Assembly (NCBI GenBank): GCA_963792775.1
Contig: CAWBXU010000015.1
Location: 263-64,262 of the forward strand
Direction of reading: 5' to 3'
DNA: 64,000 nt
Source: an uncultured Verrucomicrobiae bacterium
Lineage (GTDB): Bacteria > Verrucomicrobiota > Verrucomicrobiia > Chthoniobacterales > UBA10450
Below, piece by piece: positions 10,488 through 64,000 of the stretch; position 1 is the stretch's first letter; each line of letters starts with the position of its first letter. The translations under genes and the position numbers were made by a program. The notes under the pieces are model-generated. The model ran no database searches. It was not told the origin of the DNA and worked only from the letters and a program-made list of their open reading frames with translations.

Positions 10488-11936
10488 ATGGAGCACACCA
10501 GAACAGCAAAGGCGCACCGCGACCGGTTTTCCGAGAGTGACGAAGGCGTCAGCACCTTCCTTTTCTGTGCCGGTTGGGCGATCACGCTCCTTTATTTTCC
10601 AAACGGTTTGATGCATGAATGGCTGGGTTCGCTGGTTTACGTAAGAGATGGTCTGCTGATTTTGCATCTGGGGGGGACAGTCATTTTCTTTGCCAGGTCA
10701 GGCAGACTCCGGTCGTTCATCACTAACTCGTGGCTGCTCTGCCTCGTGCCCCTCTTCATATTGCCCGCCCTCTTTAAGAGCGAATACTCGATCGAGGCGC
10801 TCACCTTGTGGAAATGGACGGCATTCTGGTTGGACTGGATTCTTCTTGGCCGGCTTCTCGCCACGCAGAGAAATTTCACTGGAGTGATGTGGCTACTGGC
10901 CGGTTTGACCGTCTTTCTGCTCGCCGCGGACGCCGCCATTGGTTGTTATGAATGGAAGACCAATAAGTTCTTTTTCCCGATGCGCGGTGAAGTATCTCCA
11001 TTGGGTGTTCCGATGGGAAAAGATCAGCACCTGGTGCATCATCTACGGCTAAAAGGATTGCAGCGGGACGTCTTCTCGTTTGCTAACTTGATGGGTCTCG
11101 GGTGCGTGCTTTCGCTCTGTCTTTTCGTCAGTCTTAAGAATGCGCTTCAGCGTTATACAGCTCTCGTGATCAGCGGAATGTTCGCGCTTGTCATTTTCGC
11201 TTCCGGTGGACGTTCGGCCTTGATCGGAATCTTCGCTGCAGGTCTGCTTGCGGCGGCCTTCACGGTCGATCGTTTACGAATGCGTAGGTACTCAAAACAC
11301 CTTGCCGCTGTCTGGCTGTGCCTGGCCCTTGCTATCAGTTTGATCGGCGTGGGACAGATCACCGACGTGGTGAGCAGCTCGCTGATTAAGGGATCCTATG
11401 TAGGCGATTCCGCGAGTGCTTACGCGCGGGATAGGAGTTGGGGAAACATTCTCACGGCGATTGAGCACGTTCCTATTGTGCTTTTCACTGGAGGCCCGCT
11501 CGGCTCCTACATCGATAGTCAGGTCGATCCAATTTATCACTGGGCGGATAACAACTATCTTTGGCTGGTTTATCACACCAGCGTTATCGGCTTGCTGGGA
11601 GTTGTAGCTTATTTCCGAAAAGTACTTGGCTATAATGTATCGGCCTCTCGGGAATGGGGTCGTGACTGCTGCTTGTTATTCCTTGTCTTCGTGATGGGCG
11701 AATCAATTGCGCGAGAGGCGCTCACTTTTATTGGCTGCATGCCGCTCTTTGTGGCTTGTGGCTTTATCAGTGATTCTCACTCGCGATCCCTACCGGCTAC
11801 AGGCGGACGGCGAAGCGTTGACCATGCCGTCGTCTCCGAAAGATCGAAGCACCGGCGGCGGCGACGGCGGAAAAGCTCGATAGGAGAAACGTCCGAGGCA
11901 CCCTCGCTGCAGAGAGAAGATTCAATACGGAAATGA
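10488..11936 (+). CDS. O-antigen polymerase/ligase-like membrane protein (Wzy-like), paralogue A, with a basic C-terminal tail
   Basis: 482 aa, multi-TM. It shares blocks with the next gene: LQRDVFSFANLMGLGCV, GGRSALIGIFAAGLL, HWADNNYLWLVYHTSVIGLLGVVAYFRKVL and FVMGESIAREALTFIGCMPLFVACGFI. The tail reads SERSKHRRRRRRKSS. Confidence 0.6.
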   Translation: MEHTRTAKAHRDRFSESDEGVSTFLFCAGWAITLLYFPNGLMHEWLGSLVYVRDGLLILHLGGTVIFFARSGRLRSFITNSWLLCLVPLFILPALFKSEYSIEALTLWKWTAFWLDWILLGRLLATQRNFTGVMWLLAGLTVFLLAADAAIGCYEWKTNKFFFPMRGEVSPLGVPMGKDQHLVHHLRLKGLQRDVFSFANLMGLGCVLSLCLFVSLKNALQRYTALVISGMFALVIFASGGRSALIGIFAAGLLAAAFTVDRLRMRRYSKHLAAVWLCLALAISLIGVGQITDVVSSSLIKGSYVGDSASAYARDRSWGNILTAIEHVPIVLFTGGPLGSYIDSQVDPIYHWADNNYLWLVYHTSVIGLLGVVAYFRKVLGYNVSASREWGRDCCLLFLVFVMGESIAREALTFIGCMPLFVACGFISDSHSRSLPATGGRRSVDHAVVSERSKHRRRRRRKSSIGETSEAPSLQREDSIRK

Positions 11937-30233: not shown

Positions 30234-30325
30234 GGGAACGCGCGGAGCCATCGGTTAGGCTTGACAGCTGCGAGGTCGGCGGCAAAACCTCGCCCCGTCA
30301 GTTGAACCAACAAGAAAGAATCAAA

Positions 30326-31042
30326 ATGAAATTACTCACTCGCGCACTCGCGATCCTCGCCTTCTTGCCGATTGCGGCACTGCAGGCCCAGCAGCCATCC
30401 GCCGCATCCAAAGGCGCCGCGACCATGAAGCGGACCGACGTTTACCACGTCTTCATTGTCAAAGCCGCGCCCGGCAAGGCGAAGGAATTACAGGATTGGC
30501 TGAAGCAACCCGATCCGCAACATCCCGACGCCAAGGGAATCGTCCTGCGTCATCAGGACGGTGACGCGTGGGACTTTGTCGCCATCGAGCACATCGGCAC
30601 GAAAGCGACCGTGGACCTGAGCGCCACGCCGATGACGCCGCAGCAGCGGCTCATCAGCGAATGGCACGGCGACACTTTTGTCAGCGGTCCCTCCTGGGCC
30701 GACTTCGCGAAAGCCCTCGGCCTGGATGATGCCTCCAAGACTTCCGGTGCGGTTTATATCGTTTCCGATTATCGGGCCGTGCCCGGTCATCGCGATGAGC
30801 TGGAGAAAATGCTGAGCGAAGCGACTCCGGGCGATACGGCTTCGGGAAATGTCCTCCTCGCACATGTGGAAGGCGCGCCGTGGAATTTCCTTGGCGTCGT
30901 CCGTTACGATAGCTGGGAAAAATACGCCGATGGCGAAAAGAACAGCATCGCGCAGACGAACAAGGGCGAGGGCGGCTGGTTTGAGCTGCGCAACCACGTG
31001 GCTCTGCATCACGATACGCTGACCGATCGCATCATGCCCTAA
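30326..31042 (+). CDS. Secreted protein with an internal duplication of a roughly 100-aa alpha/beta module (function unknown)
   Basis: Signal peptide MKLLTRALAILAFLPIAALQA. Module 1 is VYHVFIVKAAPGKAKELQDWLKQ..GIVLRHQDGDAWDFVAIEHIG. Module 2 is VYIVSDYRAVPGHRDELEKMLSE..GNVLLAHVEGAPWNFLGVVRYDS. Confidence 0.5.
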   Translation: MKLLTRALAILAFLPIAALQAQQPSAASKGAATMKRTDVYHVFIVKAAPGKAKELQDWLKQPDPQHPDAKGIVLRHQDGDAWDFVAIEHIGTKATVDLSATPMTPQQRLISEWHGDTFVSGPSWADFAKALGLDDASKTSGAVYIVSDYRAVPGHRDELEKMLSEATPGDTASGNVLLAHVEGAPWNFLGVVRYDSWEKYADGEKNSIAQTNKGEGGWFELRNHVALHHDTLTDRIMP

Positions 31043-31182
31043 ACGGCGGGATCGCTGGGGGCTGAACAGGGAGGGGCGCTTTGCAAGCGCCCATGGCGGT
31101 TTTAAACCGCCGCTCCCTGATCAGGCCTGATCACGACTCGCCTGCACAACCTTATGCGGGGGCGGAAACGAACTCTTTGGTG

Positions 31183-37057: not shown

Positions 37058-37420
37058 ATGACCGGGCCGAATCGCTTTCAAAAACTGGTCGCCGAAGCGA
37101 AGAAGAATATCCGCGAGATTTCGCCTAACGACGCCGTGCACGAGGTCGGCTGCGGCGCCGCCACTCTGATCGATGTGCGTTCTGCGGAAGATTGGAAGTC
37201 CGGCCACGCGCGCGGCGCACGTCACCTCGAACGGGGCGAAGTCGAGCTCGAGATCGAAGAACAGATTCCCGATCTCGACCAGCGCATCATCTGTTATTGC
37301 GGCGGCGGGAGCCGCTCCGCGCTCGTCGCCGAGAGCCTGCAGAAGATGGGTTATCGCAATGTCCGCTCGCTGGCCGGAGGTTTTCGCGCCTGGCAGGCGG
37401 CTGGTCTGCCAAGCGAATAA
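37058..37420 (+). CDS. Rhodanese-domain sulfurtransferase
   Basis: 120 aa. It has LIDVRSAEDWKSGHARGARHL and the active-site loop CYCGGGSRS. Confidence 0.8.
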   Translation: MTGPNRFQKLVAEAKKNIREISPNDAVHEVGCGAATLIDVRSAEDWKSGHARGARHLERGEVELEIEEQIPDLDQRIICYCGGGSRSALVAESLQKMGYRNVRSLAGGFRAWQAAGLPSE

Positions 37421-37467
37421 TTTGCGAGCTTGACGCCATCGGCGCAGCTCCCAACAATCCGCACCCG

Positions 37468-39745
37468 ATGAACTCTCGAATCGCGGTGCTCCTGTCGGTT
37501 TTGTTCCTCGCGGCGGCGACGCTTTCCGCTCGCCTCGCTGCTCCACGAACGGGAAGGCAAAAACACCTCGGCGTTGAGGGAGGCTGGGGCGGAAAAAGAG
37601 AGCCCGCCGGAAGATTGGTTCGTTACCCAGCGGGTCACGCATGGCGGAATTCCCGCGGGCGCCCTCGAGAAAGCTGGCGCGCAGGCGGCCGCGCTCATCG
37701 CGGCAACCGAGCAGGCGAATCCGGCTCCGAGCCGGCACGCTGGAAATTTGTCGGGCCGACTAACATTGGTGGCCGAGTCGTGGACATCGCTGTCGATCCG
37801 GTTGCGGCCGACACGATTTACATCGCCGCGGCGACCGGCGGCGTCTGGAAGAGCAAGGACAAAGGCTCTCACTTCAGCGCCATCTGGCCGGCGACAAATC
37901 CGCAATCGATGGGCGCGCTCGCCATTTCCCCTAACGGCACGCTCTTTGCCGGAACCGGCGAAGCCAATCCTGGCGGCGGCAGCATCACCTACGGCGGCTC
38001 GGGCATTTACCGTTCGAGCGACGGCGGGAAGACCTGGCAACTCGTCGGCCTAACGAACTCCGGCGCGATCGGCCGGATCGCGATCGATCCGACTAATCCG
38101 CAGCGCATCTTCGCCGCGGTCGCGGGACAACTTTACAACCACGGCGGCGAGCGCGGCGTTTACGAATCGACTGACGGCGGCTCCAATTGGACCCAGGTCC
38201 TGGCCGGCGACAACGACACGACCGGCGCGGTCGACCTCGCAATCGACCCGACCAATCCGAACCGGATCTTCACCGCTATGTGGGACCACTTGCGCGAGCC
38301 CGATCTGCGCACCTATGGCGGAGTCGGCTCGGGCGTTTATCGCTCGACCGACGGCGGCGCACATTGGCTGCGCCTAACGAGCGGTCTGCCCGCCGTGTCG
38401 CCCACGATCGGCCGGATCGGGATCGCGCTGGCGACTTCCAACCCGCAGCAGCTCTATGCCATCGTCAACCAGACGAACGGTTTCTTCCAAGGCTTCTACA
38501 GATCGACCGACGGCGGCGACACCTGGACGAAGTTGCCTAACAATTCCACCCTCTCGGGCGCGCAATCGAGCTACGGCTGGTGGTTTGGGCGGCTCTGGGT
38601 CGATCCGCTCGATCAGGCCCACGTCTTCGCGGCCGGGGTTTACCTTTGCGAATCGAAAAACAGCGGCTCGACTTTCACCGGCGCGTTCAGTCCGCACGCC
38701 GATCATCACGCCATGGCGTGGGACCTGAAAGTGCCCGAACCGCGTTTATCTCGGGAACGACGGCGGCACTTACCGCTCGGACGTGAACGGCTCGAACGAC
38801 CAATGGACTTCCGCGACTTCCCAGCCTTTCACGCAGTTCTACAGCGTGGACGTGAGCGAACAGGACGCCAGCCGGCTGGTCGGCGGCGCGCAGGATAACG
38901 GAGTGAACCGTTCCTATCGGCGGGACCGGCTGGAACACCTACGTCGGCGGCGACGGCCTCGAGGCGTTGATCGATCCGGTCGACCAGAACAACGTCTACG
39001 GCTGCTCCCAATACGGCGAATGCAATCGCTCGACCAACGGCGGCTCTTCATCTTCCGATTTTACCGGCGCCACGACCTCTTCCCGTCGGAATTGGCTCAG
39101 CCCGCTCCAGTTCGACCCGGCCAATCCCGCCATCCTCTACTACGCGGGCAACAGGTGAACCGCTCGGTCGATCACGCTGTCCACTGGACCGCGATCAGCC
39201 CCGACCTGACCGGCGGACCGGGGCGCGATCCGAGTTATCCCTTCGGCACCGTCACCACCGTGGCCGGCGCGAAGACCGATCCCAACCGCGTCCTCGCCGG
39301 GACCGACGACGGCCGCCTCTGGTTCACGACGAATCTTGGTGGAAATTGGACCCGGGTGACCGATCCCGACGTTCCCGGGACGTGGGTCACCCGGGTCACC
39401 GTCGACCCGGCTAACGCGACCATCGCCTATGCCACCTTCTCGGGTTTCCGCGCCGGCAGCGCCATGCCTTACGTCCTGAAGACGACCGACGGCGGAACGA
39501 ACTGGACGAACATCTCCGGCAACCTCCCGCAGGCGCCGGTTAACGACATCCTCCCGATCGGCTCGACCCTTTACGTCGCGACCGATGTCGGCGTCTTCAG
39601 CTCGCCTAACGGCGGCCGCAAATGGCGCGCGGCGGGCACGAAGTTGCCTAACGTTCCCGTGACCGACCTCGAATATCGGGCAGCCTCGAACGCGCTTTAC
39701 GCCGCCACCTTTGGTCGGGGGATGTTCATGCTCGCGCTGCCTTGA
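37468..39745 (+). CDS. Secreted BNR/Asp-box repeat (sortilin/VPS10-like) beta-propeller protein; about five frame changes
   Basis: Signal peptide MNSRIAVLLSVLFLAAATLSA. Asp-box repeats recur: GVWKSKDKGSHF, IYRSSDGGKTW, YESTDGGSNW, YRSTDGGAHW, YRSTDGGDTW, LKTTDGGTNW and FSSPNGGRKW. Reading switches frames near 37560, 37735, 38745, 38925 and 39155. Confidence 0.7.
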
Positions 39746-39795
39746 CCTGAAGAGCCGGCAAAATCTCGATCGCATCCCGCGGGTTGCCGCGGCGC

Positions 39796-39946
39796 CTGGG
39801 TAGCGCGTGCGTCTCGCATGCTGGCGACGGTGTTCCACCGTCGCGAACTTTTCTTGCGGCGGAGCCCGTTCGAACGACGTGGCGTAACAAAAAGTTCGTC
39901 GCGCTGGAACAGCGCGACCAGCACACGAGACGTGTGCGCTACCCGG
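39796..39946. repeat. 151-bp REPIN-like palindromic element (GGGTAG heads, nested hairpins)
   Basis: The left arm is CTGGGTAGCGCGTGCGTCTCGCATGC (39796-39821). The right arm GCACACGAGACGTGTGCGCTACCCGG (39921-39946) is its imperfect reverse complement. Internal hairpins are GCGACGGTG-ttc-CACCGTCGC (39824-39844), GAACTTTT..AAAAGTTC (39845-39897) and GTCGCGCTG-gaa-CAGCGCGAC (39898-39918). Confidence 0.7.
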
Positions 39947-39967
39947 GCGTGTGTCCGCTTCAGGTGC

Positions 39968-40050
39968 CTGGGGAGGACGGGCTGGTAGCCCGTCGCGCTT
40001 GGGCGAGTCTCGCCCAAGGCCGTTTGCGGGGAGCGCAACTTGTGGAGGCA
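39968..40050. repeat. Half-element of the same family (GGGGAG head plus two hairpins, then a second GGGGAG-hairpin unit)
   Basis: It reads CTGGGGAG GACGGGCT-ggt-AGCCCGTC gcg CTTGGGCGAG-t-CTCGCCCAAG gcc, then CGGGGAGCGC AACTTG-tggagg-CAAGTT. The first 53 nt align with the reverse complement of 60661-60714, with compensatory stem changes. Confidence 0.7.
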
Positions 40051-40470
40051 AGTTTCCGTCATCGTGATTCCGGAGGCCGGGAGCGCTCGTGGACTGACCG
40101 TCGCAGGTTCCGAAAAGGCCGTTTCGATTTTCGCGAAGACCGGGAGAGCAATCGTAAAGGCCGAAGCGATTGATCGGACGGCCTTGTCAGGAGTTCTTCA
40201 GGTCAGATTTACGATCGCGACGGTCTTGTTTTCGTTCCGGCGGCCTTCTCGCTGAGATCGACGGCCTTATTTCCCGAGGCGAAAGGCCGTTCCCTCGCCG
40301 ACCCGCCCACGGCGCCATCGGGCCGGTCGAGAGCTCGGCCAGTGAAGGCGATGTTTCATTCTTGACAGAAGCCAGCGAAATCGAAAAGCCTCTCGGCCAT
40401 TCCTCCTTTAGGCGACGCGTTTTTGCAGCAGATGAGCAACAGATGCACAAAGCAGGAACAGATCTACGCC

Positions 40471-41232
40471 ATGAACCTTAGAAAACGCAGCTACTCGCAG
40501 TCAGTCATCCCCCTTCTCTTCGCGGCCCTCGCGGTCGCGCTTAGTTTCTCGTTAGGCAGCTCCACCGCGCAGGGTGAACTGCTTTTCTCCGATAGCTTCC
40601 AATATACCCCTGGTCCGCTCGACGGGGATGGTCCGCCGGCCGGTGCCCCTCCGGGTCAATCGGGCTGGAGCATTCTCTCGGGCCAGCCGCAGGTCACCCC
40701 GATTGGGTTGCACTTGAAGAGTCTGTTCTACGCCGGGGGAGCCATCTCGCTCAATGATTTCGCTGTCGCGCAGACGGCGGTGGCGAGTCTCAGGCCGGTG
40801 ACGAGCGGCGTCGTCTGGATCGGCTTTCTCATCCGTAACGTGAGTGGCGGAGATGACGGCTACGCCGTGCTCAATCTCACCGCGGGCACGGGGACGACCG
40901 GTTTCCCCGGCTACGGGGTGCTCGACGCCCACCGGCTTTTCGGGATCGATAACGATACCGGGCGGCCGCGGAGTCAGGCGTTCACCACCATCCCGCCCAG
41001 CACGGACACAACCTGGGTGGTGATAAAGTTGAATTTCAGCCGCGGAAGCCAGGAGCTTTTCATCAACCCAAGATCTCAGAACGCCTCGCCGGATGCGGTC
41101 TTGAGGATGACGCCCGATTTCCAGACGAACGGCTTCAGCGACATGCGCCTGAACGAGGGCTTCAACGGCGGCGTCTTCAACTTCGACGAGCTGCGGGTGG
41201 CGACGACTTTCGACGAGATTCGGATTCCATAG
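40471..41232 (+). CDS. Secreted hypothetical protein (possible jelly-roll/LamG-like fold)
   Basis: ATG 40471 gives signal peptide MNLRKRSYSQSVIPLLFAALAVALSFSLGSSTAQG. The protein is beta-rich and ends ..FNFDELRVATTFDEIRIP. No motif that I can assign. Confidence 0.45.
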   Translation: MNLRKRSYSQSVIPLLFAALAVALSFSLGSSTAQGELLFSDSFQYTPGPLDGDGPPAGAPPGQSGWSILSGQPQVTPIGLHLKSLFYAGGAISLNDFAVAQTAVASLRPVTSGVVWIGFLIRNVSGGDDGYAVLNLTAGTGTTGFPGYGVLDAHRLFGIDNDTGRPRSQAFTTIPPSTDTTWVVIKLNFSRGSQELFINPRSQNASPDAVLRMTPDFQTNGFSDMRLNEGFNGGVFNFDELRVATTFDEIRIP

Positions 41233-55462: not shown

Positions 55463-58051
55463 TTATTCTGCGCGCAGCGCGACCATCGGATCTACGCGCG
55501 CCGCACGTCGCGCCGGTATCCAGGTCGCGAGCAGGGCCGCGGCCGCGAGGAGAAGCGGCGCGAGCGTGAAGGCAATCGGATCGAGCGCGCCGACTTCGTA
55601 GAGCAACCCGCTCACCACTCTGCCGATCAGGATCGCAAGTACCAGCCCGAGCCCGACGCCACTTAGCAACATGAGCGCGGTTTCGCGCATGAACATCCAT
55701 TGCACCGCGCCCGGCTGCGCGCCCAACGCCATGCGAATGCCGATCTCCCGCCGGCGCCGCGCGACCGCGTAGGCTTTCACCCCGTAAATCCCGATGACCG
55801 CGAGCGCGAGCGCGAGCCCGCCGAAGATGGAAAAAAGCGCTGCCCCCGCCCGCACGAGCCAGAGCTCGACATTGCTCTCGAGATGTTGCGAGAACGTTTT
55901 CAGCGAGAGAATTGGCAGCACCGGATCGACTTCGCGAACCGTCCGCCTGACGAGATCGGCGGCGGTGCTTTCATTGGCGTGACTGAGCGCCGCGAATTTT
56001 ACGATGAAGAAAACCTCGCTCTGGAATCCGCGCGCGAAGGGCAGGTAAAGCGTTCCCGGCTGCTCGCTCTCGAAGATGGCGCCACGCGTCGCCGGCACGA
56101 TGCCGACGACTTCGATCGGTTGTTCCGGCTTAATTTGCCCGTTGCGGTCGTCATTGATGTTGAACCCGTTCCGCTCGGTACCTTTCACGGGGGCGTTGTC
56201 GCTCGCGATCTGGATTTGCTGTCCCAGCGCGTCGCCATCGGGCCAGAGTTTTTTCGCGAGCACATCGTCGATGATCGCGACCGCAGGTCCGCCGGGCTCG
56301 TTTGCCTCCGCCGCATTAAAGGCGCGCCCGCGGAGGAAGCGCAGTCCGGTGGTGGAAAAATAATCCGCGCCCACGCTGTTCCAGCGCGCGCTGAAAGCGA
56401 GGCCCGCCGCGGCCGTCGCCGGATGCGAGTCGGCTGTTCCATGAAAGCCGGCCCGCTGCACGTTCTTATCCAACGAAATCATCCCGAAAGGCACGGTCGC
56501 GGAAATCGTGGCGTGCTCGACCCCAGGAAGAGCGGCCAGGCGCTCCTGCAGTTTGCGATAAAGTTCCTGCGCGTGTTTTTGATCGTAGCCGCCGAGGCTG
56601 GCATCGACTTCGAGGAGAAAACTCCGCTCCGTCTGCAAGCCCGTATCGACGCTCGCTGCTTTCTGCGCGCCGCGGACGAAGAGCGCCGCCGCCGTCAGGA
56701 GGGCGAGAGAAAAGGCGATTTGCGCCACCACGAGCGGATTGCGCGGGAGAAATTTCCAATGCCGCCTAACGACATCTTCGGCCGCGTTTTCCTTCAGATC
56801 GCCGATCACGAGACCGCGCGAAAGTTTCAAGGCCGGCCCGAGGGCGAAGCCGATCGTGCCGAGCATGGCGAAGAGGAGGGTGGCGAGAAGGATGGCGGGC
56901 TTGGGTCCCGTCGTCCAAACGAGATCGAGCGGGATCAGCTTGCCGGCCGAGGCAAAGAGCAGGTCGCACGACCAGAGCCCGAGGAGCAATCCGCCGGCCC
57001 CGCCGCAGAGCGCGAGAACGAATCCTTCGATGAGCAGTTGCCTAACGATTTGCCGGCGGGTCCCTCCGAGCGCCTGCCGAATCGCGATCTCTTTGCGCCG
57101 CGCCGTGCCGCGGGCGAGGAGCATGTTCGCGAGGTTGAGGCAGGCGACGAGGAGCACGACCAGCGACATCCCGAGAAGGAGCGGCGCGACCGTGCCCAGG
57201 TTGCCCGCGCCTTGCGGGCTCGTGCTCGTGGAAAAGCGCGAGACGGGCGTGGTCAAAAAGGTCTGGTTTTTCTGCTCGACGGGGTAGGCCTTTTCCAGAT
57301 TGGTCGCCAGCGTCTTCAGCGCGGGCAACGCGGCCGCCGCCGTCAGGCCGGGTTTGAGCCGGCCAATCAGCATGAGCTGGGTGCTGGCGCGGTCGCCTAA
57401 CGAGTTGCGATTATCCTGCTCGAAATCGTTCGCCACCTGATCGTAAACCCCGAGCGGCAGCCAGACCTCCGGAGCGATGATCTGCATCGTCCCGGCGAAC
57501 CCTTCCGGCAGGATCCCAACGATCGTGAACGGGCGCCCATCGATCAGCATTTTCGAGCCGAGGAGATCGGGCTTGAGGCCCTGTTTTTTCCAATAGCTGT
57601 GACTAACGATCGCGACCTGCGCGTTGCGGCCGGGCGTTTCCTCCTCGGGCAAAAAAGTGCGCCCCTGCGCGGGTGCGCGTCCGAGGACGGAGAAGTAGTT
57701 CGAGCTCACGACATCCGCGAAAGCGCGTCGGGTGTTCCCTTTTTCGCCGATGCCGATCATGGCGAGGTTATGCGCGAAGAGGCCGGAGAAGACGGTGTTC
57801 TGCTCGCGAATGTCGCGATAAGTCGGATAGGAAAAACCGCGAAAGCTCTTCGGGTTTTTCGCATCCTGCGAGAAGAGCTGCACGATTTCGTCAGGCCGCT
57901 CATAACTCGGCGGGTCGTAGAGCAGTGTGTGGATGAGGCTGAAGACGGAGGTGTTGACCCCGATGCCAAGGGCCAGGGTGAGGATCGCAAGGGCGCTGAA
58001 GCCGGGCGATTTGAGGAGGAGCCGAAGGGCGAAGCGGAGGTCGTGGAGCAT
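55463..58051 (-). CDS. ADOP-family duplicated MacB/FtsX-type permease (paralogue 1)
   Basis: 862 aa and intact. The N-terminus is MLHDLRFALRLLLKSPGFSALAILTLALGIGVNTSVFS. There are two FtsX modules (..RRKEIAIRQALGG.. and ..RRREIGIRMALGA..). The C-terminus is ARRAARVDPMVALRAE. Confidence 0.85.
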   Translation of the reverse strand: MLHDLRFALRLLLKSPGFSALAILTLALGIGVNTSVFSLIHTLLYDPPSYERPDEIVQLFSQDAKNPKSFRGFSYPTYRDIREQNTVFSGLFAHNLAMIGIGEKGNTRRAFADVVSSNYFSVLGRAPAQGRTFLPEEETPGRNAQVAIVSHSYWKKQGLKPDLLGSKMLIDGRPFTIVGILPEGFAGTMQIIAPEVWLPLGVYDQVANDFEQDNRNSLGDRASTQLMLIGRLKPGLTAAAALPALKTLATNLEKAYPVEQKNQTFLTTPVSRFSTSTSPQGAGNLGTVAPLLLGMSLVVLLVACLNLANMLLARGTARRKEIAIRQALGGTRRQIVRQLLIEGFVLALCGGAGGLLLGLWSCDLLFASAGKLIPLDLVWTTGPKPAILLATLLFAMLGTIGFALGPALKLSRGLVIGDLKENAAEDVVRRHWKFLPRNPLVVAQIAFSLALLTAAALFVRGAQKAASVDTGLQTERSFLLEVDASLGGYDQKHAQELYRKLQERLAALPGVEHATISATVPFGMISLDKNVQRAGFHGTADSHPATAAAGLAFSARWNSVGADYFSTTGLRFLRGRAFNAAEANEPGGPAVAIIDDVLAKKLWPDGDALGQQIQIASDNAPVKGTERNGFNINDDRNGQIKPEQPIEVVGIVPATRGAIFESEQPGTLYLPFARGFQSEVFFIVKFAALSHANESTAADLVRRTVREVDPVLPILSLKTFSQHLESNVELWLVRAGAALFSIFGGLALALAVIGIYGVKAYAVARRRREIGIRMALGAQPGAVQWMFMRETALMLLSGVGLGLVLAILIGRVVSGLLYEVGALDPIAFTLAPLLLAAAALLATWIPARRAARVDPMVALRAE

Positions 58052-58063
58052 GGTCGTGGTTTT

Positions 58064-60508
<2,445 letters not shown>

Positions 60509-60563
60509 TTGGATGCAGTGGCCGCCTTGTTGGATTCAAATTCCTCTGCCGCGCCTTCAAATT

Positions 60564-60714
60564 CTGGGGAGGACGGAGTGCCACTCCGTCGTTCGGCGCA
60601 GTCTGCGCCGAACTGCGCGCAGGGTTGATTCCTCGAGCACGGGTGGCGCCGTTCGCGGAGGGCCTTGGACGAGACTCGTCCAAGCGCGACGGAGTAACAC
60701 TCCGTCCTCCCCGG
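60564..60714. repeat. 151-bp REPIN-like element (GGGGAG heads) between ADOP paralogues 3 and 2
   Basis: It reads CTGGGGAG GACGGAGTG-c-CACTCCGTC (60564-60590), GTTCGGCGCAG-t-CTGCGCCGAAC (60591-60613), CTTGGACGAG-a-CTCGTCCAAG (60664-60684), then GACGGAGT-aac-ACTCCGTC CTCCCCGG (60688-60714). Confidence 0.75.
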
Positions 60715-60737
60715 AACGGAAATAGCACGCCGGAAGA

Positions 60738-63164
60738 TCATTCTGCCCGTAATGCCTCCATCGGATTCACTTTGGTGGCGCGGCGCGCGGGGAGGTAATT
60801 GGCGAGGAGCGCGACGAGCGCGAGCAGACAAACGACGCTGACGAACGTCACCGGATCCGTCGCGCCCACACCATAGAGCAGGCTCGCAAGAAATCTCGTT
60901 AGGCCAAACGCGGCCAGCAGGCCGAGTCCGAGCCCGATGGCAGCGAGTTTCATTCCGTCGCCCACGACCATGCGAAAGAGCGTCGCGCGTTGCGCCCCCA
61001 AAGCCATGCGAATGCCGAGCTCGCGCGTGCGCTGGGTGACGGCGTAGGAAATGACGCCATACAAACCGAGCGCGGCGAGGGCGAGTGCGATCGCGGCGAA
61101 GGTGCCGAGCAACGCGCCGTTCAGCCGTCGATCCGCGACCGATTCAGCGATCACGTTTTGCATGGTTTCGACCCGGAATAGCGGCAAGCTCGGATCGATT
61201 TCCTGAATGGCGCGCCGCACCGAAGCCACGAGCGCCGTTGGCTCAGTCGCATTCGCCCGCACCACCAAGGTCGCGGTCTGCAGCATGTTGCCTCCCAAAT
61301 CTTTCGAGCCCGGAGCCTGCGCAATCGCGAAGTAAATTTCTGGCTGCGGCTCGCGATCGAGACCGCTCTGCCTGACGTCAGCGACCACCCCGACGATCGT
61401 GAAGGCGTATTCGCTCCCGATAAGAATTTTTCCGCCGAGAATTCCGCTTTCGCTTTCACCGAAGCGACGAGCGAGCGCGCGGTTCACCACGATCGAGGGC
61501 GACGCCATCGCGCCATCGCGCGCATCAGTCAGCCGGCCGGCCAGCAGCGGCACGCCCATCGTCCCGAAGTAATTCCCGGCGACACAGCGGAACTCCGCCA
61601 GCGGCGCCTGCCCGGGCGGGAAAGGATGACCCTCGAGTTTGATGCTGCCGTTCATGCCCCATTGCGCGAGCGGCAGAAAATTGATCGCCCCGGCGCCGCG
61701 CACTCCGGGCAGACTTTGGATGCGGCCGAGCGCACGCTGGTAAAACGCGATGACCTGATCGGCGCGCGCGTAACGATCGTTAGGCAAAGCGACCCGCGCG
61801 GTCAGCACCTGCTCCGGCTCGCGCAATCCCGAGTTGGTCTGCTGCAGGGCCGCGAAACTGCGCAGGAGCAAGCCGGCGCCGCTCAGGAGGACGACGGCGA
61901 GCGCCACTTCCGCGACAACGAGGAGACCGCGCAACCGGTTCGCGCCCGCGAGCGCAGTCTGGCCGTGCAGCGCAGTTTGCATATCGGCCGCGGAACGTCC
62001 CAACATTTGCCGCGCGGGCGCGAGTCCGCAGCCGACCCCGACGCAGAAAGCGAGGAGCGCGGTGAAACCCAAGACCGTTCCATCGAGGTGCACCGCGCTC
62101 GCCCCAGGAATTTGATTGCCTAACAATGCCAGGAGCAGATCGATGCCCCAGATGGCGAGGACAATGCCGGCCGCGCCGCCCAGCGTCGCGAGCAAAATGC
62201 TCTCGATGAGAAATTGCCTAACGAGTCGCGCGCGACTGGCGCCGAGCGCGAGCCGGAGCGCGATCTCGCGCTGGCGTCCGGCGGCGCGGGCGAGGAGAAG
62301 ATTGGCGATGTTGGCGGTCGCGATCAGGAGGACGCAGGCGACGCTTCCGAGGAGAACGAGGAGCGAGGCGCGGCTGTTCCGCGTCAGCTGTTCCTGCAGG
62401 GGGACGAGCGAGATGCTGCGGTCGCCCTGCTCGTCGGGATATTTTTTCCCGATCGTTAGGGCGACCGCTTCCATGTTGGCCTGCGCCTGCGCCAGGGAGA
62501 CGCCGGGACGCAGACGACCGACCACCTGCAATCCGTGATCGCCGCGCGCCGCCATCTGCGCCGGAGTCACGACCAGCGGCACCCAAAGCTGCCCGCGTTC
62601 GCTCGGAAAACGAAAGCTCGCCGGCATTACTCCGATGACGGTGAAAGGCCGGCCATCGAGCGGAATGGTGAGGCCAACGATCGCGGGATCAGCTCCGAAT
62701 TGCGCGCGCCACATTCCCTCGCTGAGCACAACCACGTTCGTGCCGCCGGCCCGGTCTTCACCGCCGACAAACGTTCGGCCGAGCAGCGGCTGCGCGCCGA
62801 GGACGCGGAAATAATTTGCCGAAACGGTGACGCCAAGAATGCGCTCCGGGCTCGTTTTATCCTGCAGCGCGAAATCCTGATATTGGTAGGCCGCGATGCC
62901 TTGCAGCGTCGTGTTCTGTTCGCGCCAGTCGCGAATATTGGCGGGTGAGCTGGAGCCGAGAAAGCCCGCTGGAAATTTCTTGCTCTCGAAAATCTGCACG
63001 AGCTGATCCGGCCGGGTGAGCGGCAGCGGGCGCAGGAGGACGGCGTTGACCACGCTGAAGATCGCGGTGTTCGCGCCGATCCCGAGAGCGAGAGTGAGGA
63101 TCGCAATCAGGCTGAAGCCCGGCGATTTTATTAGAAGCCTGAAGGCGTAGCGAAGATCGTTCAT
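60738..63164 (-). CDS. ADOP-family duplicated permease (paralogue 3)
   Basis: I take ATG 63164 (MNDLRYAFRLLIKSPGFSLIAILTLALGIGANTAIFS), giving 808 aa. The ORF extension to 63272 runs through the palindromic element. It has GRQREIALRLALGA, RTRELGIRMALGA and ARRATKVNPMEALRAE. Confidence 0.85.
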   Translation of the reverse strand: MNDLRYAFRLLIKSPGFSLIAILTLALGIGANTAIFSVVNAVLLRPLPLTRPDQLVQIFESKKFPAGFLGSSSPANIRDWREQNTTLQGIAAYQYQDFALQDKTSPERILGVTVSANYFRVLGAQPLLGRTFVGGEDRAGGTNVVVLSEGMWRAQFGADPAIVGLTIPLDGRPFTVIGVMPASFRFPSERGQLWVPLVVTPAQMAARGDHGLQVVGRLRPGVSLAQAQANMEAVALTIGKKYPDEQGDRSISLVPLQEQLTRNSRASLLVLLGSVACVLLIATANIANLLLARAAGRQREIALRLALGASRARLVRQFLIESILLATLGGAAGIVLAIWGIDLLLALLGNQIPGASAVHLDGTVLGFTALLAFCVGVGCGLAPARQMLGRSAADMQTALHGQTALAGANRLRGLLVVAEVALAVVLLSGAGLLLRSFAALQQTNSGLREPEQVLTARVALPNDRYARADQVIAFYQRALGRIQSLPGVRGAGAINFLPLAQWGMNGSIKLEGHPFPPGQAPLAEFRCVAGNYFGTMGVPLLAGRLTDARDGAMASPSIVVNRALARRFGESESGILGGKILIGSEYAFTIVGVVADVRQSGLDREPQPEIYFAIAQAPGSKDLGGNMLQTATLVVRANATEPTALVASVRRAIQEIDPSLPLFRVETMQNVIAESVADRRLNGALLGTFAAIALALAALGLYGVISYAVTQRTRELGIRMALGAQRATLFRMVVGDGMKLAAIGLGLGLLAAFGLTRFLASLLYGVGATDPVTFVSVVCLLALVALLANYLPARRATKVNPMEALRAE

Positions 63165-63189
63165 AATCGTCTTGGATGTGGCGCGCACT

Positions 63190-63319
63190 CTGGGGAGCGC
63201 ACGCGACTCGCGTGCTGCAATCGGCGACTCGCCGATTGCCTCTGCGGTCTCAGCGCTGGGCGCGAAGAGCATTTCGGCGAGTCGCCAAAATGGGCACGCG
63301 AGTCGCGTGCGCTCCCCAG
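63190..63319. repeat. 130-bp REPIN-like element with perfect 26-nt inverted arms between ADOP paralogues 4 and 3
   Basis: CTGGGGAGCGCACGCGACTCGCGTGC (63190-63215) is the exact reverse complement of 63294-63319. Inner hairpins are AATCGGCGA-c-TCGCCGATT (63219-63237) and TTTCGGCGA-g-TCGCCAAAA (about 63272-63290). It ends 1 nt from the stop of the upstream gene. Confidence 0.8.
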
Positions 63320-63320
63320 A

Positions 63321-64000
63321 TTACTCATCGCGCAGCGCCTCGATCGGGTTGACCCGCGTGGCGCGTTGCGCCGGGAGCAGACAGGCGACAAGCGCGACCG
63401 CCGCGAGCAAGAGCGTAATCGCGCCGAGGGTGAGCGGATCAGAGGCGCTCGTCTGGAAAAGAATCGAGCCCATCGCGCGGGTCGCGAGAAAGGTCGCGAC
63501 CAGGCCGACGAGCAATCCGATCCCGACCAGCTTGCCGCCGCTGCCGAGAATGAGATTGAGCACGTCGCGGGTCTGCGCGCCCAGCGCCATGCGAATCCCA
63601 ATCTCGCCGCGTCGCTGCACGACGTTGTAGGACATGACGCCGTAAATCCCGACTGACGCGATGATGAGCGCGACGATTGAGAAGACGGCGACGAGCGTCA
63701 TGGCGAAGCGTTGCTTCGCGATCGTCTCCGAGAGAATTTCCGTGAGCGGCTGGATCGTGCCGACCGGCTGATCTTTGTCGATGGAATAGACCGCGGGTCG
63801 GAGCGCCCCAATCAGCGCCGCGGGCGAGCCCGTGCTGCGCAGGACGACGTTGAGGGTGTTGAAGGGATGCTGCGCGAAGGGCTCGTAAGTCTGCGCCGTT
63901 GTCTCCTTGTCGACGCCGTACTGTTTGATGTCGCCGACGATCCCGACGATCTGGCGGAAATTTTCCGGACCATTCTGCACATCGATCTGTTTCCCGATCG
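63321..64000 (-). CDS. ADOP/FtsX-type permease (paralogue 4), C-terminal part only; continues beyond the window
   Basis: The frame is open to the window edge. It has VQRRGEIGIRMALGA and the C-terminus AQRATRVNPIEALRDE. Confidence 0.8.
   Translation of the reverse strand, partial: IGKQIDVQNGPENFRQIVGIVGDIKQYGVDKETTAQTYEPFAQHPFNTLNVVLRSTGSPAALIGALRPAVYSIDKDQPVGTIQPLTEILSETIAKQRFAMTLVAVFSIVALIIASVGIYGVMSYNVVQRRGEIGIRMALGAQTRDVLNLILGSGGKLVGIGLLVGLVATFLATRAMGSILFQTSASDPLTLGAITLLLAAVALVACLLPAQRATRVNPIEALRDE

Follow-up and report, generated by a model that had tools for sequence, protein, structure and literature searches.

REP/REPIN-type elements in a gene-free gap of a Chthoniobacterales bacterium are probably copied by a RAYT encoded elsewhere in the genome

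RAYT/REP systems are defined by a RAYT gene that lies between inverted copies of the same REP (PMC2817692), and this RAYT-plus-REP unit is called a “REPtron”; REPs and REPINs are treated in Nunvar 2010 (PMC2817692) and Bertels & Rainey 2011 (PMC3116915). GTAG REPs are reported to abound in the verrucomicrobium Opitutus terrae, and GT pairing is frequent (Di Nocera 2013, PMC3733652). Some tyrosine transposases (TIRYTs) are flanked by long TIRs of two palindromes, an arrangement named TIRtron (PMC3733652). We analyzed a 64-kb stretch of DNA from a member of the Chthoniobacterales (Verrucomicrobiota), here called the window, with two neighboring elements, A and B, in a gap between genes. Judged from their sequence and that of their relatives, A and B are very probably non-autonomous elements of the REP/REPIN type, which would be copied in trans by a RAYT encoded elsewhere.

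The gap comprises 725 nt (39746-40470), from the stop codon of a BNR/Sortilin-type gene to an ATG at 40471. It had been described as gene-free in an earlier note on this DNA, and our results agree: Pfam gave no match for four ORFs across 39697-40481, two of which cross the hairpin arrays end to end, and the coding potential was not credible. A protein encoded in the gap was therefore rejected. An Rfam scan of 39700-40520 returned nothing up to E=1, and across the whole window one tRNA alone reached the gathering score; the elements were thus rejected as members of a known structured RNA family, as no covariance model matched them.

Element A (39796-39946, assigned to neither strand) is a full type-1a REPIN by its fold and its full-length identity to copies in other genomes. 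Its left arm consists of the head GGGTAG (39798-39803), the 7-bp hairpin HP1 (39805-39821, GCGTGCGtctCGCATGC), the trinucleotide TGG, the 9-bp hairpin HP2 (39824-39844, GCGACGGTGttcCACCGTCGC) with the loop ttc, and the tail GAACTTTT, which is followed by a 37-nt spacer. The right arm mirrors it with HP2' (39898-39918, GTCGCGCTGgaaCAGCGCGAC, loop gaa), HP1' (39921-39937, GCACACGagaCGTGTGC) and the mirrored head CTACCC (39939-39944). A REP unit with the head 5' of a palindrome, GGGTAG plus a 7-bp hairpin, is thus found on both arms. Direct reading and a repeat search showed that the inverted arms (39793-39852 and 39890-39949) are 60 nt long and 77% complementary, so that the symmetric part reaches about 60 nt per arm rather than the 26 nt given previously. 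The predicted RNA fold of A has a free energy of -101.7 kcal/mol (z -8.8 against shuffled sequences), far better than the shuffles, and the element is present as it had been described. Its copies in other genomes and species are 82-84% identical over the full length.

HP1 and HP1' are each perfect hairpins (one G.T wobble allowed) that differ from each other at 5/17 positions. The two HP2 stems are unrelated although their loops are complementary, as stated in the earlier note and confirmed here by direct reading. Both stems recur as such elsewhere, for example in four related loci (L082, L096, L125 and L172), and they represent fixed “alpha” and “beta” arms family-wide, which are also located on the two sides of RAYT genes (L212 and L196). 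Since the same two stems recur in other genomes, the asymmetry of A is a family property that was inherited and did not evolve in place.

Element B (39968 to ~40050, plus strand) is a lone “beta” arm of a type-2 REPIN. It is composed of the head GGGGAG (39970-39975), HP1 (39976-39994, GACGGGCTggtAGCCCGTC), HP2 (39998-40018, CTTGGGCGAGtCTCGCCCAAG) with a perfect 10-bp stem, and a third small hairpin (40024-40038). Its description as a half-element holds, since homology is lost after ~40048 and alignment to 20 full alpha/beta elements revealed no recognizable alpha partner arm beyond that position. B matches the reverse complement of 60661-60714, and exactly three base pairs differ on both sides of the stems. 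Two of them fall in GACGGGCT/AGCCCGTC versus GACGGAGT/ACTCCGTC; the third falls in CTTGGGCGAG/CTCGCCCAAG versus CTTGGACGAG/CTCGTCCAAG. These compensatory pairs, reported earlier, proved exact on re-reading. The fold of B alone shows a marginal excess over shuffles (z -2.0).

When the window was scanned for hairpins preceded by GG(G/T)AG, A, B and two further elements, C and D, were recovered, and also E, which raises the number of elements from the four counted previously to five. Element C (60564-60712, neither strand) is a full REPIN of type 2, its left arm being alpha and its right arm beta; it sits between two tandem ADOP permease genes and has a fold z of -8.2. Element D (63190-63319, neither strand) is a full REPIN of type 1b whose 26-nt terminal arms (CTGGGGAGCGCACGCGACTCGCGTGC) are perfect; its fold z is -13.2, and relatives of type-1b exist. 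Element E (31066-31118, neither strand; fold z -6.7) is a 53-nt doublet, CAGGGAG + GGGCGCTTtgcAAGCGCCC + TGGCGGTTTtAAACCGCCG + CTCCCTG, which starts 24 nt past the stop codon of the gene at 30302-31042. E is a further REP family in the window, since the same doublet lies on both sides of a second RAYT lineage in a related locus (L122, 5743-5799 and 6392-6446). All five copies in the 64 kb are intergenic, in short spaces just after stop codons. The divergence of the stems, which the earlier note considered larger than expected for freshly copied REPINs, is no oddity of fresh copies: A and D fall into separate subfamilies (1a and 1b), and the HP1 variants of B and C coexist family-wide.

In the minus-strand region around C and D (55463-63980), duplicated permease genes of the ADOP family form a tandem array. 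Three of them scored 745-949 bits, and a fourth ORF (63321-63980) runs off the window. C and D fill short spacers of the array, on either side of the permease gene at 60738-63164 (minus strand).

The same elements form dispersed, multi-copy families in related genomes, comprising three arm types (1a, 1b and 2) plus the E doublet. The REP-like arm consists of a GGG(T/G)AG head of the GT(A/G)G type and two G+C-rich hairpins, and the complete element of two such arms, inverted, with the heads outermost and a variable spacer between them (~145-160 nt in all). The type-1a arm (GGGTAG head and two hairpins; pattern GGGTAGCGCNNNCGTCTCGNNNGCTGG) was found in at least 119 stretches from many Verrucomicrobiota genomes and MAGs, including Udaeobacter. 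We read 166 such arms, with GGGTAGCGC followed by HP1, and 70 full elements besides A in related loci, mostly 147-151 nt long. The type-2 arm (GGGGAG-GACGG...; pattern GGGGAGGACGGRSTNNNASYCCGTC) was found in at least 97 stretches, nearly all from Chthoniobacterales MAGs and mostly as inverted pairs 150-220 nt apart. We read 152 such arms and 64 full elements, the latter with lengths of ~150-160, 175-180 and 200-220 nt. A typical type-2 alpha arm is HP1 + TTCGGCGSAGTCTSCGCCGAA and a typical beta arm HP1 + CTTGGGCGAGtCTCGCCCAAG + TTTGCGCGCAGCGCAA, exactly the layout of C. Dozens of loci each from the MAGs JBBQHV01, JACDGS01 and CBDCJI01 were among the matches listed. Further copies, as looked for in the earlier note, are thus numerous in related genomes. 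As in the window, a type-1a and a type-2 element are neighbors in two unrelated loci (L082 and L096), and such adjacency is the clustering known for REPs. The element ends are conserved (TCC|GGGGAG...CTCCCC|GGA), and no direct repeats indicating target-site duplication were detected at more than 70 full elements.

The arms were also found beside transposase genes. A tblastn search with E. coli RayT identified Y1_Tnp-like genes adjoining elements in three cases (L102, L122 and L155/L157), and a search with an alignment of these genes yielded 80 RAYT loci, nearly all of which carry inverted head+HP1+HP2 arms within ~30-150 nt of the gene. Type-1a arms bracket RAYTs in L196, L208-L210 and L212; D-like type-1b arms in L180-L184, L197 and L233; and type-2 arms in L102, L179 and L155/L157. 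A cognate RAYT between inverted REPs thus occurs in related genomes for all three arm types as well as for the E doublet. All 72 sequences compared keep the HUH histidines, and 70 of them keep the catalytic Tyr (Y..NP context). With the NCBIfam model REP_Tyr_transpos (NF047646), which has a cutoff of 80 bits, the RAYT genes of the relatives score 67-84 bits; those in L196 (84.4) and L197 (83.9) exceed the cutoff, and those in L102 and L122 (72-73) lie just below it. The RAYTs also match the IS200 model weakly, and the RAYT model is matched far better. Within the 64-kb window itself, tblastn found neither a RAYT nor recG (best E ~0.06). The search for a RAYT gene proposed in the earlier note was thus successful in the relatives, where the gene is flanked by the same arm types, and negative in the window; for this organism we infer the link from its relatives.

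These findings support the REP/REPIN architecture first proposed for A and B through the copies in related genomes, the covariation described below and the RAYTs flanked by the same arms. The elements would be copied in trans by a RAYT (an HUH/Y1 single-strand DNA transposase) from another part of the genome. This enzyme would recognize the folded head-plus-hairpin on the strand with the head at its 5' end, and would cut and join at that place with no target duplication. The hairpins could, as a side effect, act on transcripts.

As in REPINs, a head tetranucleotide precedes a palindrome, two inverted REPs make up the presumed mobile unit (A, C and D have both around a spacer, B is a single arm), and the copies in related genomes are many and dispersed, cluster beside each other and probably lie mostly between genes. 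As in REP/RAYT systems, the RAYT lies between the same inverted REPs, stem mutations are compensated and there is no target duplication. Unlike REPINs, the arms are 50-60 nt long with two or three hairpins instead of one, in a unit of 145-220 nt, and the two arms constitutively differ in HP2 (“alpha” and “beta”). Three window families have a GGAG head, not GT(A/G)G, and this variant replaces GTAG in B, C and D. The host belongs to the Verrucomicrobiota (Chthoniobacterales), in contrast to the Gammaproteobacteria. The elements share with the REPs of O. terrae and the PVC group (PMC3733652) the phylum, GTAG/GTGG heads, tail-to-tail dimers, frequent G.T stem pairs and sites downstream of ORFs, as compared at the level of family descriptions. 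The arms exceed classical REPs (20-40 nt) in length and are similar to the “double palindromic TIRs” of TIRtrons; however, the published TIR motif GGGGWSAS (PMC3733652) does not fit the heads found here. The elements further resemble IS200/IS605 (TnpA Y1, subterminal hairpins) in HUH/Y1 chemistry, folded single-strand ends and the absence of target duplication, but their ends are inverted copies of one module instead of two different hairpins, the transposase fits the RAYT model better and the short elements carry no gene.

Palindromes are kept by compensatory substitutions, and the compensatory changes first seen between B and C received formal covariation support for type-2 and type-1a stems. 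The following counts come from in-register alignments that include copies related by descent, and overstate the number of independent events: in type-2 beta arms, 100% of cells are paired and six pairs are changed on both sides, with 0/500 shuffles as high; in type-2 alpha arms, 99.9% of cells are paired, again with 0/500 shuffles as high; and in type-1a HP1, where the search pattern left three positions per side free, these positions comprise 441 Watson-Crick, 46 G.T, 5 A.C and 6 other cells. One position of the type-2 beta HP2 shows G-C, U-A, A-U and C-G. For type-1a HP1, the pairing of distinct variants exceeded that of all 1000 shuffles. The covariation is evidence for maintenance of the structure and gives no count of independent events.

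The mismatches may indicate which strand folds. When the arms are read with the head at the 5' end, G.T pairs outnumber A.C pairs (58 versus 19 in one count), and the same reading of type-1a HP1 gives 46 versus 5. This bias would fit folding, or damage, of the DNA strand carrying the head at its 5' end on both arms, which a transposase acting on single-strand DNA would lead one to expect. A strand-specific mutation bias could also give rise to the G.T excess. Selection on a single RNA transcript as the source of the covariation is disfavored, since the two arms lie on opposite strands and the excess of G.T over A.C is present on both.

It has to be considered whether the elements are primarily cis-acting RNA or DNA signals of the host, such as two-way intrinsic terminators or stabilizers of mRNA 3' ends, kept by selection and not by transposition. 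In A, HP2 followed by GAACTTTTCT forms a terminator-like module on the plus strand (39824-39853), and HP2' followed by GAACTTTTTG its mirror on the minus strand (39889-39918). T-runs thus lie behind both inner hairpins, with a terminator-like score on both strands, so that A looks like a two-way terminator or 3'-end stabilizer by its sequence. The tail CGAACTTTY is conserved across the type-1a family, the RNA folds are very stable, and all copies in the window lie just downstream of stop codons. However, independent terminators would be expected neither to share 80-84% identity over ~147 nt across unrelated loci and species nor to bracket RAYT genes as inverted arms. The type-2 and type-1b arms have no T-run, Rfam gives no match, and the G.T bias, present on both arms, is at odds with transcription of one strand as its cause. 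We therefore regard host signaling as an unlikely primary nature of the elements. A terminator or 3'-stabilizer effect is plausible as a secondary role, given the T-runs, the conserved tail and the position of all five copies, and is best seen as exapted by elements that are of the REP/REPIN type in the first place.

The covariation itself might have arisen mechanically: template switching or gene conversion within quasi-palindromes would make the compensatory changes without selection, and copying would then spread them. Mutation through palindrome correction is known, and many variants are common to numerous copies, indicating single events. On the other hand, G.T intermediates are common and strand-biased, which argues for stepwise substitution via tolerated wobbles and not for one-step correction. 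This origin is quite improbable, and it would concern the source of the covariation but not the identity of the elements. That the elements are MITEs, deletion derivatives of a DDE-type insertion sequence moved via its terminal inverted repeats, is hardly credible and was rejected: the inverted repeats at the ends, the length of 130-220 nt and the dispersed multi-copy spread would agree with it, but more than 70 full copies lack a target-site duplication, the gene between the same arms is an HUH/Y1 RAYT and not a DDE transposase, and what is conserved is the local hairpins, not arm-to-arm complementarity (the two HP1s of A differ at 5/17 positions).

Our analysis of the RAYT loci, all from related genomes outside the window (L179-L258, L377 and L378 were examined for nesting), revealed an unusual arrangement. 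In L102 (4511-7141), recG contains a RAYT together with both REP arms, and the whole reads as a single open frame of 876 codons; the RecG parts align to residues 127-455 and 473-769 of T. maritima RecG. The same nesting was found in 11 further loci (L179, L183, L186, L188, L192, L196, L205, L210, L216, L221 and L155/L157). The RAYT is located at one site, just before the “VGTHAL” motif, and in the same frame as both RecG halves; the recG frame is continuous in 10/11 complete cases, and the REP arm type differs between species. At 45/80 RAYT loci, the RAYT frame stays open for at least 120 codons on either side, with the RAYT nested in frame in a large housekeeping gene. These 45 loci, from independent assemblies, include nearly all of the verrucomicrobial ones and a few from Planctomycetota; the RAYT copies of Acidobacteriota and Desulfobacterota stand alone.

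The hosts identified by Pfam are recG, alaS (with at least two insertion sites), thrS, metH (sometimes with two RAYTs), priA, carB, valS, leuS and an aminotransferase. A protein search showed many database products that join Y1_Tnp with RecG, AlaRS or MetH domains, some of them named “RecG-like helicase/REP element-mobilizing transposase RayT”. In a rough neighbor-joining tree, the recG-nested RAYTs do not group together but are spread among the other copies. REPs alone are known to insert in frame, O. terrae having the most cases (PMC3733652); for whole RAYTs that lie in frame within housekeeping genes, our literature search found no paper. We tentatively propose, with slightly less than even confidence, that in this phylum the REPIN families of the window are served by RAYTs nested with their arms, in frame, in housekeeping genes, the arms being translated linkers and the RAYT an internal domain of an essential protein. 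If true, this would represent either an intein-like route that makes the RAYT undeletable and vertically inherited, or a functional chimera of a helicase or synthetase with an HUH domain. The genome of the window would then probably carry a nested RAYT for its type-1a, type-1b and type-2 elements, and confirmed nesting would bear on the long vertical persistence of REPIN-RAYT systems.

This study provides well-defined REPIN families for the Chthoniobacterales, abundant but little-studied soil bacteria, although the kind of element is already known. Families with two-hairpin arms and a fixed alpha/beta asymmetry constitute a clean natural data set of stem covariation, the strand bias of which suggests that single-strand DNA, and not RNA, is what folds. 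Such repeats explain many long “gene-free” gaps and break short-read assemblies, and they may terminate or stabilize transcripts between tandem genes.

We also made several observations on the surroundings of A and B. The gene upstream of the gap, of the BNR/Sortilin-Vps10 type, lies in two frames (37192-38898 and 38783-39745) that overlap by ~115 nt. Since both parts match the same Pfam families, this suggests a frameshift, by which the gene would be a pseudogene or contain a sequence error. The best relatives of this neighboring gene come from Chthoniobacterales MAGs (63-69% amino acid identity, with one partial match at 84%), and at the orthologous BNR loci recovered, at most 69% identical apart from the one at 84%, the intergenic DNA could not be aligned with the window. 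The remainder of the gap (40050-40470, ~420 nt) has no ORF with a Pfam match and gave no Rfam match, and no similar sequence to 40040-40480 was found among the related loci fetched. It contains several copies of the motif AAGGCCG/CGGCCTT and a weak terminator-like site (40213-40225). The sequences downstream of the orthologous BNR gene in two relatives (L009 and L017) are unrelated to that of the window, and the former, a Chthoniobacterales MAG, carries there (11060-11500) a different ~230-nt tandem repeat unrelated to the window elements.
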